Origin: Eubacteriales bacterium
GTDB taxonomy: Bacteria > Bacillota > Clostridia > Oscillospirales > CAG-272
DNA: 64,000 nucleotides
NCBI GenBank assembly: GCA_045632205.1
Contig: JAZQWH010000192.1
Location: forward strand, 361 to 64,360
Reading direction: 5' to 3'
This document shows positions 8,475 to 30,670 of this stretch, in pieces. Both the position numbers and the translations under genes were made by a program. The notes below the pieces were generated by a model. It was not told the DNA's origin. It saw nothing but the letters and a program-made list of their open reading frames with translations, and ran no database searches. Every line of letters starts with the position of its first letter. Position 1 is the first letter of the stretch.

Positions 8475-8563
8475 AATTCCAATTTTTCGGGATGATAAAA
8501 GCTAGGGCTGACGGAAAACAACCGTCAGCCCTCAAAATTTGCGGTGCAGTAGGCAAAGAAAAG
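8475..8563. repeat. Repeated intergenic hairpin/junction element, copy E2 (contains the left 18-bp direct repeat 8546-8563)
   Basis: Same architecture as E1. The tail gcagtaggcaaagaaaag is identical to 30653-30670. Confidence 0.85.
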
Positions 8564-8775
8564 CCCCGGCGAGAAGGTCAGATCAAAGCGGTTGGATAGA
8601 CAGCCGCTTTTTTCTCTTCTGCGTGAAAAAAGCTCAAACAATATGCAAAGAACGTGGATTGATGCTTCAAGATGTTGCAACTTTTTATCAAAACATTAGA
8701 CAAACAGGTTGCAAAACAAAAGAAAGTATGATATAATATAGAATATTCAAGCTTTAGCTTTTGCGAGGTGTAGAT

Positions 8776-8997
8776 ATGGGTATCAGCTATAAAAAACTAT
8801 GGGTTCTCCTGATTGAAAAGGATATTACAAGGGCGCAAATGCGCAGAGATCTGAAGATTGCCACGGGTACGATGAGCAAGCTGAACAAGGGTGAAGAAGT
8901 CGCCTTGTCGGTGATTCTCCGTATATGCGAATATTTGGATTGCGATATTGGTGACATCTGCTCTGTTGTAAATCAGAAAAAGGAGGACTCTGTATGA
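8776..8997 (+). CDS. XRE/Cro-type helix-turn-helix transcriptional regulator (73 aa)
   Basis: Motif ITRAQMRRDLKIATGTMSKLNKGE resembles an HTH. RBS gaggtg precedes ATG 8776. Stop overlaps the LytTR regulator start (ATGA). Confidence 0.75.
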   Translation: MGISYKKLWVLLIEKDITRAQMRRDLKIATGTMSKLNKGEEVALSVILRICEYLDCDIGDICSVVNQKKEDSV

Positions 8998-9725
8998 TAC
9001 GAATTGCATTATGTGACGATGAGAAAAGCTATCTTGATAAAATAAAAGGTATATTAGAGCAATACGAAACCGAGAAGGGGTTGTTATTTGATATTCACTC
9101 CTATTCATCCCCTTCTGCCTTGCTTGACAAAATTGAGGCGGGCGAGGAATATTCCATCTATATACTGGACATTTATATGCCCGGCATTACGGGAATGAGC
9201 GTGGCAACCCAGCTTCGTGACATGGGTGTGGAGTCTCCCATTATCTTTTTAACGTCGTCACCCGATTTTGCGTTACAGGCATTTGGAGTGAACGCAACTC
9301 ACTATATACTGAAGCCCTATGATAAGGATTCGGTTTTCTTTGCCATAGATAAGGCATTGAACGAGATCGGTATGATGCGTCCCGAAGGAATCATGCTTCG
9401 CATCGACGGAGGATATCAAAACGTTCTGGCAAAGAATATTATATTTTCCGAGGCAGACGATAACTATCAACGCATCCACTTGGTGAATGAAAAATATTTG
9501 TATATAAGAATCACGATGGGAGAGCTTTACGATCAACTTTCGGGCTTGAACGGATTTTTTAAGTTGGGACGCTCTCACGTTATAAATTTGAAACACGTTG
9601 TCAAATTCACCTCAAACAAGCTGTTGATGACAGGCGACAAGGAGCTGACAATTCCAAAAGGCGCAATTGCGGATTTCAAAACTGCTTATTTTGATTATTT
9701 CAGCACCCAGACCAATCTTTCTTGA
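8994..9725 (+). CDS. LytTR-family response regulator
   Basis: Receiver domain (IALCDDE, LDIYMPGITG) and a C-terminal LytTR-like segment (FFKLGRSHVINLKHV). Confidence 0.85.
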   Translation: MIRIALCDDEKSYLDKIKGILEQYETEKGLLFDIHSYSSPSALLDKIEAGEEYSIYILDIYMPGITGMSVATQLRDMGVESPIIFLTSSPDFALQAFGVNATHYILKPYDKDSVFFAIDKALNEIGMMRPEGIMLRIDGGYQNVLAKNIIFSEADDNYQRIHLVNEKYLYIRITMGELYDQLSGLNGFFKLGRSHVINLKHVVKFTSNKLLMTGDKELTIPKGAIADFKTAYFDYFSTQTNLS

Positions 9726-9740
9726 AAGGAGTAAGCAAAA

Positions 9741-27967: not shown

Positions 27968-27984
27968 GAGAGGAGGAGCGATAA

Positions 27985-30636
27985 ATGAGAATTATTCCAA
28001 AGAAAACAAAGGTCAAGGTTGAGTTTTACCGCAACTTCACTCTTGCAGATATTTTGATCGGTCTTTTGGGACTCGGTATTGAATTTTTGATACTGTTCAC
28101 CGATTACGGGATGCTGACATATATTTTTATGACAATCGTTCTTGGCATATTTGTTTGCCTTTATCTTCCTATATCGGGTGAACGCTTGTATCTCCAGATC
28201 GGAAGCTTGATAAAATTTATTTTCAGCAAGAAAAAATACACCAAGAATGCTACGGATTCCGGCGCGGATATATCAACGCTCGTTCCTTTTACCGATATAC
28301 GTGATGAGCTTATCTGTTACGGAAGCTATTATGGCGGAGTTCTGGAAATTATGCCCAAGGAGTTCAGGCTTCTTACGGGATACAAGCAATCCGAGATCAT
28401 CGACAAGGTGTTCGCGTCCATATTGAAAAGCGTTAGCGGTAAAACAAGTGCGAGTCTCGTCAAGATCGATCGCCCCATACTGCTGGATAAGCATATCGAA
28501 CAGGAAAAGAACAAAAAGCCCGATATCGATAAGCTGTTGGAAGCAGAGGGAATTACATACGAGGAAAGCATTCCAAGAAAGAATATTATCGACAATAGAA
28601 CCGAGATCCTCAATGAGCTTAACGGCAACACACGGGTTATGCGTTCGGGATATTACCTTGTCATCTATGACGCCAACCCCGCTACGATATCCGAGATCAT
28701 CAATTCGGCAATCATAAAATTCAAGGAATATACCATTGATTCTCACAGATTGTCCGATAAGGAGCTTGCGGTATTTTTGAAGTATAATTACACCAACGAC
28801 TTTGACGAGCGAGAGATCGAATACTATCAACCCGACGAGTACGTAAGTTACGCAACTCCCGAAAAGGTAGAGTTTAAATTGATGCAAACGATCGTTGACG
28901 GTAAGGAGTCGGTCACCTACACGGTCAGAGACTATCCTTTGGCTGTAAAGAACGCCTGGGGCTATAAGATCTTTAACGTAGAAGGCACCAAGGTCGTTAT
29001 GAACATCAAGCCGATCGAAAAGTCGAAAGCGATACGAATGATCGACCACTCTCTGCAAGAGCTTTTAACAAAGAACTCCTTCAAGGCATCGGATATCATC
29101 GACCAGCAGACACACGTGGATTCGCTGGTATCTCTGCTTGCGATGCTTCAAAACGATAACGAAACACTTTTTGACGTAACTATACATATTACGATCTACG
29201 AGGATTCCGCAAATTCAAGGGAAAGCCTGAAAAAGCGAGTAAGAAGTATGCTTGCGGAGGACGGCTTTAAGATCAGTGACAACGCTTCCAAGCAAATAGG
29301 AGCGTTTGTAGCATCGGGCGTGTCGGCGTTTGACGGAATGAAGGAATATAATCGTTCCATTCACGCGTCAAGCATTGCCGCTTCCTTCCCGTTTGTTCTG
29401 AATTACATTATGGATGATCGCGGAGTCCTGCTTGGTCATTCGGGCGGATTTCCCGTTATCGTTGACTTCTTCAAGCGAGATCACGAGAGAGTCAATTCCA
29501 ATATGGTTATAATGGGTAAGTCGGGAAGCGGAAAATCCTTTGCTACCAAGACGATCCTCGCTAATTTTGCGGCTGAGAACAGTAAAATATTTATTCTCGA
29601 CCCCGAAAACGAATATCAGGAGCTTGCGCACAATCTGGGCGGAAAGCTGATCGACGTGGGAACGGCAAAGGAAGGACGTCTGAATCCCTTCCACGTAATT
29701 ACCACCCTCGAAGCTGACGAAACAGATGCGGATAGCGGCGTTACCAACTTCTCCGTGCATTTGCAGTTCCTTGAGGAGTTCTTCAAGCAGATACTTCCGG
29801 GTATCTCAGCAGATGCGTTGGAATACCTCAATAACCTGATCCTGAAGCTGTACGAAAATAAAGGCATCAACACCACAACGAGCTTTGCCAAGCTCTCGGC
29901 AAAGGATTATCCTACCTTTGATGACCTCTACGCACTGATACTTGAAGAGGAAAAGAAGGCTACGCTTGAATACGATAGCGCTAACCTTCGCGTGTTGAAT
30001 AACTATATCGCGAAATTTGCGGGTAAAGGCAGAAACGCAAATCTTTGGAACGGAGAAAACAGCCTGACAGTCAAGGAAAACTTCACCGTGTTTAACTTCC
30101 AGAGCTTGCTTGCGAACAAGAACAATACCATCGCAAATGCCCAGATGCTTTTGGTCTTGAAATGGCTGGATAACGAGATCATCAAGAACAAGGAATTCAA
30201 CGCAAAGCACGGAACAAACAGAAAGATCATTGTCGTTATCGACGAGGCGCACGTGTTTATTGATACCAAGTACCCGATCGCGCTTGATTTTATGTTCCAG
30301 CTCGCGAAGCGTATTCGTAAGTATAACGGTATGCAGATCGTTATTACCCAAAATATCAAGGACTTCGTGGGAAGCCCCGAGATCGCGAGAAAGTCTACCG
30401 CAATCATAAACGCTTGTCAGTATTCTATGATATTTGCCCTGTCGCCTAACGATATGGAGGATCTTTGCGTCCTCTACGAAAAGGCAGGCGGTATCAACGA
30501 GACCGAACAGCAGGATATTGTCAATAATAACCGCGGAAGCGCGTTTATGATCACAGGACCTCTGTCAAGAGCCAATGCTTCGATCGTTGCATCGGATTAC
30601 GCCCGACGGCTATTTGAAGAAAGACAGTCTGAATAA
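27985..30636 (+). CDS. VirB4-family T4SS ATPase with N-terminal VirB3-like TM hairpin
   Basis: Two N-terminal TM segments, Walker A GKSGSGKSF, Walker B IIVVIDEAHVF, 883 aa. RBS gaggagg. Confidence 0.85.
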   Translation: MRIIPKKTKVKVEFYRNFTLADILIGLLGLGIEFLILFTDYGMLTYIFMTIVLGIFVCLYLPISGERLYLQIGSLIKFIFSKKKYTKNATDSGADISTLVPFTDIRDELICYGSYYGGVLEIMPKEFRLLTGYKQSEIIDKVFASILKSVSGKTSASLVKIDRPILLDKHIEQEKNKKPDIDKLLEAEGITYEESIPRKNIIDNRTEILNELNGNTRVMRSGYYLVIYDANPATISEIINSAIIKFKEYTIDSHRLSDKELAVFLKYNYTNDFDEREIEYYQPDEYVSYATPEKVEFKLMQTIVDGKESVTYTVRDYPLAVKNAWGYKIFNVEGTKVVMNIKPIEKSKAIRMIDHSLQELLTKNSFKASDIIDQQTHVDSLVSLLAMLQNDNETLFDVTIHITIYEDSANSRESLKKRVRSMLAEDGFKISDNASKQIGAFVASGVSAFDGMKEYNRSIHASSIAASFPFVLNYIMDDRGVLLGHSGGFPVIVDFFKRDHERVNSNMVIMGKSGSGKSFATKTILANFAAENSKIFILDPENEYQELAHNLGGKLIDVGTAKEGRLNPFHVITTLEADETDADSGVTNFSVHLQFLEEFFKQILPGISADALEYLNNLILKLYENKGINTTTSFAKLSAKDYPTFDDLYALILEEEKKATLEYDSANLRVLNNYIAKFAGKGRNANLWNGENSLTVKENFTVFNFQSLLANKNNTIANAQMLLVLKWLDNEIIKNKEFNAKHGTNRKIIVVIDEAHVFIDTKYPIALDFMFQLAKRIRKYNGMQIVITQNIKDFVGSPEIARKSTAIINACQYSMIFALSPNDMEDLCVLYEKAGGINETEQQDIVNNNRGSAFMITGPLSRANASIVASDYARRLFEERQSE

Positions 30637-30652
30637 GCGCAAATATTGCATC

Positions 30653-30670
30653 GCAGTAGGCAAAGAAAAG
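30653..30670. repeat. Right copy of the 18-bp perfect direct repeat gcagtaggcaaagaaaag
   Basis: Identical to 8546-8563. The flanking 12 nt are also similar (aaatattgcatc vs aaaatttgcggt). Confidence 0.85.

Follow-up and report, generated by a model that had tools for sequence, protein, structure and literature searches.

Phages and islands with P4- or lambda-like tyrosine integrases target tRNA genes, and their integrase gene lies at the end of the element by the attachment (att) site. In the composite islands of the staphylococcal cassette chromosome mec (SCCmec), elements and pseudo-elements are arrayed at one chromosomal site, inside rlmH (orfX), and are separated by 15-18-bp copies of the integration site; the recombinases are of the Ccr serine type, and it is common for members to have no recombinase genes. 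Tandem accretion and cis-mobilizable elements (CIMEs) have been described for the ICESt1/ICESt3-type elements of streptococci (Pavlovic 2004 and Bellanger 2011, as summarised in passages of the review PMC5704250). CIMEs are decayed elements that keep attL and attR without an integrase; they have a direct att repeat on either side, and their mobilisation can take place in cis or in trans (PMC5704250). The ssrA islands of Dehalococcoides form a tandem series downstream of a small RNA gene; every island is delimited by a 20-bp direct repeat with extra conserved bases beside it, and some of them, without an integration module, have been proposed to be cis-mobilizable (PMC3146451). In integrons, a tyrosine recombinase stands beside an array of mostly single-gene cassettes, each ending in a hairpin and a short core (PMC4889954, the IntegronFinder paper). 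The principle of tandem accretion at an att site is already known. Here we describe a 64,000-nt stretch of a Eubacteriales bacterium (assembly GCA_045632205.1, contig JAZQWH010000192.1, positions 361 to 64,360; hereafter the window), in which a perfect 18-bp direct repeat brackets a 22-kb module of regulatory genes and a type IV secretion system (T4SS), and we compare this locus with the systems above.

The 18-mer, GCAGTAGGCAAAGAAAAG, is present in two exact copies, both on the + strand, at 8546-8563 and 30653-30670. A window-wide search allowing up to three mismatches gave no third match, two matches were found in none of 100 shuffles of the sequence, and by our own arithmetic about 0.03 perfect 18-mer direct pairs are expected by chance per 64 kb. 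The similarity between the two copies reaches 31 nt (8533-8563 versus 30640-30670, 26 of 31 identical). A repeated element, E2 (8467-8563), has the left copy as its tail; the right copy begins 17 nt past the stop codon of VirB4 (30634-30636), and the segment that the two copies enclose consists exactly of the XRE-LytTR-kinase genes and a nine-gene T4SS operon. An earlier, sequence-only reading of the window had pointed to the repeat, to the relatedness of the 12 nt upstream of both copies, to their positions at the E2 tail and behind VirB4, and to the presence of nothing else between them; all of this held, the last point on the basis of the open reading frames (ORFs) and their domains. Since both copies match the cross-species consensus described below perfectly, their 18/18 identity is not evidence for a recent event. 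Our best overall explanation, with a probability of roughly 0.6, is that the repeat is an att core at which segments were stacked by tandem accretion, and that the T4SS module is one such segment, integrase-less and CIME-like.

To define the repeat outside the window, one genome per species was scanned for the motif TTGCNNNGCAGTAGGCAAAGAAAA, whose 21 specified bases give less than one expected chance hit. This yielded 72 loci in 66 assemblies, each from another species. The Pseudanabaena locus (L070), of cyanobacterial origin, looks like a chance hit and was left out, so that 71 loci from about 65 species were retained; the carriers are nearly all uncultured gut Eubacteriales, Oscillospiraceae and other Clostridia. 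Within the 8 kb fetched per locus, an integrase gene ends at most 200 nt upstream of the core in 29 of the 71 loci, and a tRNA-Pro gene (tgg or cgg) lies downstream on the opposite strand in 35. This tRNA is 32-34 nt away, the length of one terminator hairpin, in 13 loci, 153-192 nt away in 9, and 0.6-1.9 kb away in 13, where a cargo gene stands in between. In 49 of 72 contexts, a hairpin stands before the core and occurs in compensatory variants. Two or three core copies within 8 kb were found in 19 genome loci and three viral contigs, where about 0.01 copies are expected by chance; they are spaced by 0.25-5.9 kb and are all direct repeats, none inverted.

Alignment of 90 distinct sites showed that core positions 1-17 are 92-100% conserved and position 18 only 47%, the invariant block being exactly the first 17 bases of the window 18-mer. 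On the left, arm positions -12 to -4 (AAAATTTGC) are 64-99% conserved and positions -3 to -1 are variable. On the right, the edge is sharp to the base, with 68 distinct 12-mers among the 90 flanks. The canonical layout runs from an integrase gene or a small promoter-bearing cassette through a perfect hairpin, the arm AAAWWTTGCNNN and the core GCAGTAGGCAAAGAAAA to a terminator and the opposite-strand tRNA-Pro; a T4SS-free version with cassette box, hairpin, arm, core, terminator and tRNA-Pro is present in five loci (L044, L055, L076, L080 and L096). The bare 17-mer gave 25 further loci in viral contigs, all without the arm, which we treated as chance hits. As the bare 17-mer turns up in large collections by chance, specificity requires the arm, and arm plus core is the signature. 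The full 18-mer was found in three prophage-like viral contigs, all with the same order: the end of an integrase gene, hairpin, arm plus 18-mer, an opposite-strand reverse-transcriptase gene, a second tail, terminator and tRNA-Pro(tgg). The right part of the window, with an integrase remnant, an element called E3, an opposite-strand gene of the DUF559/restriction endonuclease-like (REase-like) type and tRNA-Pro, has this same layout. No cultured phage with the integrase and the element was found, the only deposited phages to carry them being unannotated faecal 'Bacteriophage sp.' contigs, and a search of the literature returned no published description of the core/tRNA-Pro site or of a LytTR-linked T4SS of this kind.

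These loci bear directly on what the sequence-only reading had proposed, namely an att core or a target-site-like duplication. The att core is supported: over 90 sites from about 65 species the 17-18 bases are invariant, in front of 68 right flanks, beside the integrase and tRNA-Pro and as direct repeats around cargo. A sequence conserved across species was not made at the insertion, and the duplication is rejected. Nor is the repeat specific to the module: the window has four copies of it, and in none of the 71 genome loci is it connected with T4SS genes. On this comparative basis the 18-mer is very probably the att core of an integrase, tied to tRNA-Pro.

The integrase in question is represented at full length in locus L045 (666-2099) by a 477-aa protein with Phage_integrase and SAM_3 domains and an arm-type (AP2-like) DNA-binding motif at both termini, ...GRWEGRV...KTQGECKEKL... 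at the N terminus and ...HLYEGRF...RTREECEEKL... at the C terminus. The C-terminal extension gave no Pfam match when the window remnant and the L045 protein were run. Seven loci carry two such genes in tandem (L028, L037, L045, L056, L063, L074 and L077). The window ORF at 31107-31481 is a C-terminal remnant of this family, with homology from 31134, and is 68% identical to the integrase of L023 and 85-94% identical to others. A tyrosine integrase family widespread in gut Clostridia appears, judging by gene neighbourhood, to use the core as its att site. In five loci (L040, L061, L065, L071 and L079), four to five direct repeats of TAGTTCCGAACATTGTTCCGA-like motifs were also seen about 70 nt upstream of the cores; they look like arm-type integrase binding sites of another element using the same core.

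In the window, a repeat finder and alignment revealed four tail copies in the same orientation, E1, E2, R and E3, of which E1 (7026-7054) and E3 (31517-31545) are degenerate. E1, E2 and E3 have a perfect 11-bp-stem hairpin just upstream of the tail, and R is a tail only. From left to right, E1 (6959-7055, + strand) comprises the box AATTCCAATTTTTCGGGATGATA, a perfect hairpin at 6996-7025, an arm and a degenerate core at 7038-7054 (seven mismatches in the 29-mer), and is followed by a GNAT acetyltransferase gene on the - strand (7059-7613), whose stop codon lies 3 nt past the core. The left part of E2 (8467-8545, + strand) has the same box at 8475-8497, a hairpin at 8503-8533 and the arm CAAAATTTGCGGT at 8533-8545, and E1 and E2 close cassettes that share promoter and 5′ untranslated region (5′-UTR). 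Behind the module, the R arm CAAATATTGCATC (30640-30652, + strand) and core are followed by a terminator hairpin, GGCGTAAGTCC-N8-GGACTTACGCC, and then TTTTGG (30670-30705, + strand). The TGG lies 34 nt past R core position 17, which is the canonical distance to the 3′ end of tRNA-Pro, and no tRNA is present directly after it. There follow an N-terminal remnant of a MATE transporter gene (30977-31162, + strand), the C-terminal remnant of the cognate tyrosine integrase, which lacks the catalytic domain (31134-31481, + strand), E3 with its hairpin at 31487-31516, arm and degenerate core at 31529-31545 (31478-31546, + strand), and the DUF559/REase-like gene (31553-32500, - strand), with its stop codon directly past the E3 core. 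The site is anchored by tRNA-Pro(tgg) at 32544-32619 on the - strand. GC content is 41-50% to the left of this tRNA and 52-58% to its right; therefore, the whole left half of the window is a low-GC island anchored at tRNA-Pro, with the tRNA at its right edge. Locus L081, which is syntenic with the left window part (HK1, p355 and p139), keeps a partial integrase, hairpin and core where the window passes straight into the first cassette promoter, and the left window part is therefore a decayed element of the same integrase/core family.

We also considered a classical tRNA-end att site, in which the repeat is the tRNA 3′ end itself. This was rejected, as no second copy of the tRNA-Pro 3′ end was found in the window and the core lies 32-34 nt beyond the tRNA. 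A pseudo-fragment covering the 5′ two-thirds of tRNA-Pro, with an insertion, is present at 32735-32810 (- strand), 115 nt beyond the intact gene, and a comparable 5′ fragment lies beyond tRNA-Pro in L023 (3348-3386). Such a partial copy implies an older recombination event inside the tRNA.

Occupied and unoccupied states of the core can be compared directly for small cargo. Loci L039, L082 and L089 run from integrase and hairpin through the core into host flank, whereas L023 and L037, which have the same host flank, carry cargo and a second core before it. One 1.23-kb cargo recurs with the same ends in L049, L052 and L097, and in L038 and L046 cores are likewise followed by the GNAT gene found behind E1. 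Cargo directly behind cores is often defence-like, as in the case of a reverse transcriptase (L023, 1250-2236), an AbiJ_NTD3 protein (L045, 2203-3546) and the DUF559/REase-like gene of the window; these genes lie on the opposite strand, and 2-7 nt separate their stop codons from the core. Cassettes come with sigma-70-like promoters of their own and in mixed orientations.

These observations suggest the following course of events. The att site would lie just beyond the intrinsic terminator of tRNA-Pro and be used by the tyrosine integrase family; each integration at the core would duplicate it, so that segments stack head to tail, and segments that lost or never had an integrase would stay bracketed by core copies. 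The window would then be a stack in which the E1 core is followed by the GNAT gene and the DUF998 cassette, the E2 core, the 22-kb regulator-plus-T4SS module, the R core, a decayed element with the MATE fragment and the integrase remnant, the E3 core, the DUF559 gene and finally tRNA-Pro. The T4SS module most likely came as a circle containing '...VirB4-CAAATATTGCATC-core-CCCCGG...', which would have recombined within the 18 bases with a resident site of the form 'E2 hairpin-CAAAATTTGCGGT-core-terminator-tRNA'. Two predictions follow in sequence terms, a circular junction ...TGAATAAGCGCAAATATTGCATC-GCAGTAGGCAAAGAAAAG-CCCCGGCGAGAAGG... and a repaired site ...CGTCAGCCCTCAAAATTTGCGGT-GCAGTAGGCAAAGAAAAG-GCGTAAGTCC... 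after excision. At present, the module would move only if a cognate integrase were supplied in trans.

What speaks most strongly for the module as an insert at the core is that excising it from the window together with one core copy would rebuild the canonical architecture, including the spacing. Besides, E2 and R have identical cores but different arms (CAAAATTTGCGGT versus CAAATATTGCATC, 8 of 13 identical), as expected if a resident site and an incoming circle had recombined inside the core. The sequence-only reading had likewise placed the insertion or recombination of the module at the E2 tail. The rebuilt site speaks for this part of its proposal; on the other hand, mobility is not demonstrated and relatives of the module show four kinds of left junction, all without a core.

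A number of observations in these relatives weigh against entry of the module through the core. On the left, homology to the window starts at 8601 in L010 and L011, at 8579 in L098 and L099, at 8732 in L007 and at 8994 in L006. The 15 nt that follow the left core, CCCCGGCGAGAAGGT (8564-8578, + strand), are present in no relative, the homology of L098 and L099 starting just behind them. A core with up to three mismatches was absent from L001-L022 and L098-L100, and no T4SS relative has a core at its left junction. On the right, arm and core are kept only in L002 and L003, and the homology of L001, L004 and L005 ends at 30626. The predicted junctions core+CCCCGGCGAG and core+GCGTAAGTCC were both absent from viral contigs. 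Two checks that the sequence-only reading had suggested, a search for an empty site and for the module at other loci flanked by the 18-mer, came out negative: no empty/occupied pair was retrieved among the relatives, with and without cargo states being seen for small cargo only, and T4SS genes stood beside the core in 0 of 71 genome loci. Finally, other bracketed segments measure only 0.25-5.9 kb, a range that may be an artefact of the 8-kb view. The contigs of the closest T4SS relatives, the cluster members, break inside the XRE or kinase gene, before the left junction. Weighing both sides, we lean slightly towards the view that the T4SS module entered through the core and is a trans-mobilisable segment without an integrase.

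The right junctions of L002 and L003, whose VirB4 is 94% identical to that of the window, deserve description. Their VirB4 is kept together with the R arm, the stop codon being followed by GCGTAAATATTGCATCGCAGTAGTCAAA, and an inserted IS110-family element stands before the remainder of the core; behind that element there are a terminator and a tRNA 3′ half, with TGG 32 nt past core position 17. In L002 the element spans 12680-14290 (DEDD_Tnp_IS110 and Transposase_20 domains) and lies inside the att core downstream of VirB4. The insertion is comparable to that of IS1111-attC elements, which target the attC sites of integrons. In L001, a terminator and a pseudo-tRNA-Pro fragment follow on the right after homology is lost, and L010 and L011 have a MatE gene and a pseudo-tRNA-Pro 3′ fragment upstream of the module. 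Pseudo-tRNA-Pro 3′ fragments with an odd extra T (…GACAGGACTCTGAAC…) were seen at 7310-7340 in L010, 7040-7070 in L011, 12748-12772 in L001 and after the core in L055; they lie to the left of the module in L010/L011 and to its right in L001. The shared fragments may point to a second att system at this locus, one that targets the T-loop. We also entertained a circular permutation, with the MATE fragment of the window (30977-31162) corresponding to the MatE gene of L010, and dropped it, as the identity is 32% over 31 aa only.

The alternative that survives best also takes the 18-mer as an att core but holds that the module never moved through it. The order T4SS-arm-core-terminator-tRNA-Pro would be the ancestral chromosomal one in the lineage that bears the T4SS, the T4SS being the host-side arm of attB; the left copy would have come with the unrelated cassettes of E1 and E2 through other rearrangements, and the bracket would be a by-product. 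The VirB4-arm-core-terminator-tRNA half seen in L002 and L003 agrees with it, as does L001, where VirB4, a possibly decayed core (10/18, by eye), a terminator and the pseudo-tRNA-Pro fragment occupy the equivalent place. It would also account for the missing left core in T4SS relatives and for left breakpoints scattered over 8579, 8601, 8732 and 8994, as illegitimate or homologous events would leave them. That the module adjoins tRNA-Pro or its remnants in the window, L001, L002 and L010 fits a resident T4SS as well as an inserted one. However, integration at a core to the right of the T4SS puts newcomers on the right, which leaves a perfect core with an E-type hairpin directly to the left unexplained. 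Nor does a module that never moved explain why its excision rebuilds a canonical site with canonical spacing, or why relatives with VirB4 91-94% identical have it in differing genomic contexts. We therefore regard a resident T4SS as unlikely, though it is the alternative to be taken most seriously.

Clearly less plausible is an origin without any site-specific recombination, in which the tail would be a conserved 3′-UTR/terminator region of the integrase gene, the cassettes and the tRNA-Pro terminator, and in which copies would have spread and modules been swapped by homologous recombination between short conserved blocks. It is true that the reverse complement of the core begins with the T-tract of the tRNA-Pro terminator, that the hairpin is called as a minus-strand terminator, and that its stem varies by compensatory changes (GGGCTGAC/GTCAGCCC versus GGGGCGAC/GTCGCCCC). 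Nevertheless, a block of 17-30 bp is a poor substrate for homologous recombination, and a right edge sharp to the base in front of 68 different flanks, invariably direct copies and the tight link to one integrase family are typical of att sites. A target-site duplication made by a transposase when the module inserted would yield a perfect direct repeat at both ends of a discrete module, yet it is already refuted by the same sequence at about 90 sites in about 65 species around unrelated cargo, besides which 18 bp is far above the usual duplication length, the similarity runs 13 nt further left with mismatches, and the module ends bear no terminal inverted repeats and the module no transposase. 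Chance identity or an assembly artefact is just as improbable: the expected number of pairs is small but not zero and the contigs of relatives often break near these elements, but the shuffles gave no double match, both copies match an independently conserved motif, and a false join is presumably unlikely for a repeat of 18-31 bp, below usual assembly k-mers.

Returning to the module as an integrase-less segment between two att cores, its left end (8579-11006, + strand) comprises a terminator (8585-8610), a promoter (8709-8737) and genes for an XRE protein (8776-8997), a LytTR response regulator (8994-9725) and a GHKL (AgrC-like) kinase (9741-11006), all on the + strand. The T4SS operon (11184-30636, + strand) encodes proteins of 419, 798 and 228 aa without assignment, VirD4 (15583-18033; T4SS-DNA_transf match, 6e-53), a 2458-aa surface protein, a T4SS pilin (25375-25683), a 247-aa protein, a VirB6-like protein of 504 aa and VirB4 (27985-30636; P-loop_TraG match, 3e-23), again on the + strand. 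VirB4 together with the coupling protein VirD4 is what marks the mating-pair-formation T4SS found in integrative and conjugative elements (ICEs). Neither a recombinase nor a transposase domain was found among the 12 ORFs of the module, three of which have no detectable family, and 8564-30652 holds no integrase of its own, the only one being the truncated remnant outside it. The sequence-only reading had remarked on the lack of a recombinase and concluded that mobilisation would be in trans or ancient, a wording made apt by a truncated cognate integrase 0.5 kb to the right. No relaxase family was matched in Pfam, NCBIfam or PHROGs, where the three ORFs of 419, 798 and 228 aa likewise had no match and could hide one; the first two also had none among PDB sequences. 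A cell-wall hydrolase was not detectable in the T4SS module. The XRE gene and LytTR/AgrC-like two-component system upstream suggest that this T4SS, which is possibly non-conjugative, is expressed under the control of a signal.

Homologues of VirB4 with 58-60% identity abound in uncultured Clostridia, e.g. Candidatus Coproplasma. Exact-sequence look-ups of the window VirB4 and response regulator gave no match, and neither did a megablast of 8000-31600 against plasmids. The C terminus of VirD4 contains six tandem 45-48-nt units (17808-18035) encoding an acidic E/T-rich repeat, which overlaps the start of the 2458-aa ORF.

The small cassettes of the island have a structure of their own. In the p107 and DUF998 cassettes (+ strand), an 18-nt 5′-UTR motif, CGATAAATAAGAATTTGT, precedes the ORF, at 6603-6620 behind a TTGAAA-17-TATAAT promoter (6566-6594) in the former and at 7817-7834 behind a promoter at 7780-7808 in the latter (both + strand). 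An imperfect reverse complement of the motif stands directly after the cassette stop codon (15 of 18 for DUF998), so that 6603-6620 pairs with 6965-6985 and 7817-7834 with 8471-8489; the observation also takes in L101-L113. The DUF998 gene with both motifs is present in hundreds of 90% clusters, mostly on contigs under 2 kb, and is also found in unrelated contexts that have neither hairpin nor core. Two explanations offer themselves for the motifs: they resemble terminal inverted repeats and mark the ends of a very small mobile cassette, or they are a device for pairing the 5′- and 3′-UTR. Elsewhere in the window there are unexplained repeats: 130-nt direct repeats with perfect 24-nt palindromes near 59.7 kb (59654-59961), 73-nt direct and 40-nt inverted repeats around tRNA-Met and tRNA-Glu at 62.1-62.5 kb (62260-62541), and Cys-rich coding repeats at 62.8-63.3 kb (62782-63286). 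A tetrahydrofolate (THF) riboswitch (36989-37105) and a glmS ribozyme (55882-56034), both ordinary, lie in the high-GC core-genome half.

What was an anonymous 18-bp repeat becomes a landmark: about 65 species of uncultured gut Clostridia share this conserved integration core next to tRNA-Pro. In metagenome-assembled genomes, whose contigs often break nearby, it can serve to mark out islands, the ends of prophages and hot spots of defence genes. The locus also offers a testable route for moving a T4SS module that has neither integrase nor relaxase and stands under a two-component system of the peptide-sensing type, and it flags an unstudied integrase architecture. A bolder and rather doubtful idea is that of a dedicated gene-capture platform of gut Clostridia, integron-like in function and evolutionarily separate. 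The integrase, which has an arm-type domain at each terminus, would move self-expressed cassettes into and out of the 17-bp core, among them defence genes (reverse transcriptase, AbiJ, REase-like), GNAT and DUF998 genes, two-component systems and, here, a relaxase-less 22-kb T4SS module. If this were true, whole secretion machines could shuffle between species as integrase-less units.

How, then, does the locus compare with the described systems? With the integrases of P4- and lambda-like phages and islands it has in common a Phage_integrase catalytic domain with an N-terminal arm-type domain, an integrase gene beside att and tRNA, and direct att repeats at both ends; in contrast to them, the tRNA 3′ end lies outside the identity segment, the C terminus of the integrase bears a second arm-like domain, and small defence-type cargo gathers between integrase and tRNA, each piece bracketed by cores. 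Its likeness to integrons (PMC4889954) is partial and lies in the tyrosine recombinase, the hairpin and core that end cassettes, and the single-gene cargo. In contrast to integrons, the integrase is of the phage type, has SAM_3 and arm-like domains and reads towards the array; cassettes are self-promoted and stand in either orientation; and the site is tied to tRNA-Pro, its core being conserved as duplex sequence where an attC is defined by structure, and the R copy has no hairpin. As for the ssrA islands (PMC3146451), their repeat is the ssrA 3′ end and their recombinase the serine recombinase DsiB, whereas the window repeat lies outside the tRNA and goes with a tyrosine recombinase.

A close parallel is with ICESt1 and its CIMEs (PMC5704250), since the window contains the remnant of an integrase and four direct cores, two of them intact and enclosing a segment without an integrase. 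The target differs, being a 17-bp core beyond the terminator of tRNA-Pro instead of the 3′ end of a protein-coding or tRNA gene. The module shares with a CIME the direct att-core repeats at both ends and the absence of integration genes inside, three ORFs being without a family; it differs in keeping the T4SS genes for VirD4, VirB4, the VirB6-like protein and the pilin, where a CIME is by definition without transfer genes, and no relaxase, empty/occupied polymorphism or excision was found for it. Because these T4SS genes are kept, the module is not a strict CIME, and because neither integrase nor relaxase was found, it is not an ICE. An array with site copies is common to the window and to SCCmec composite islands, while recombinase, target, taxa and cargo differ. 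By analogy, the mechanism proposed here is like tandem accretion with CIMEs, the ssrA islands and the SCCmec composite islands, in a locus that is a member of none of these families.

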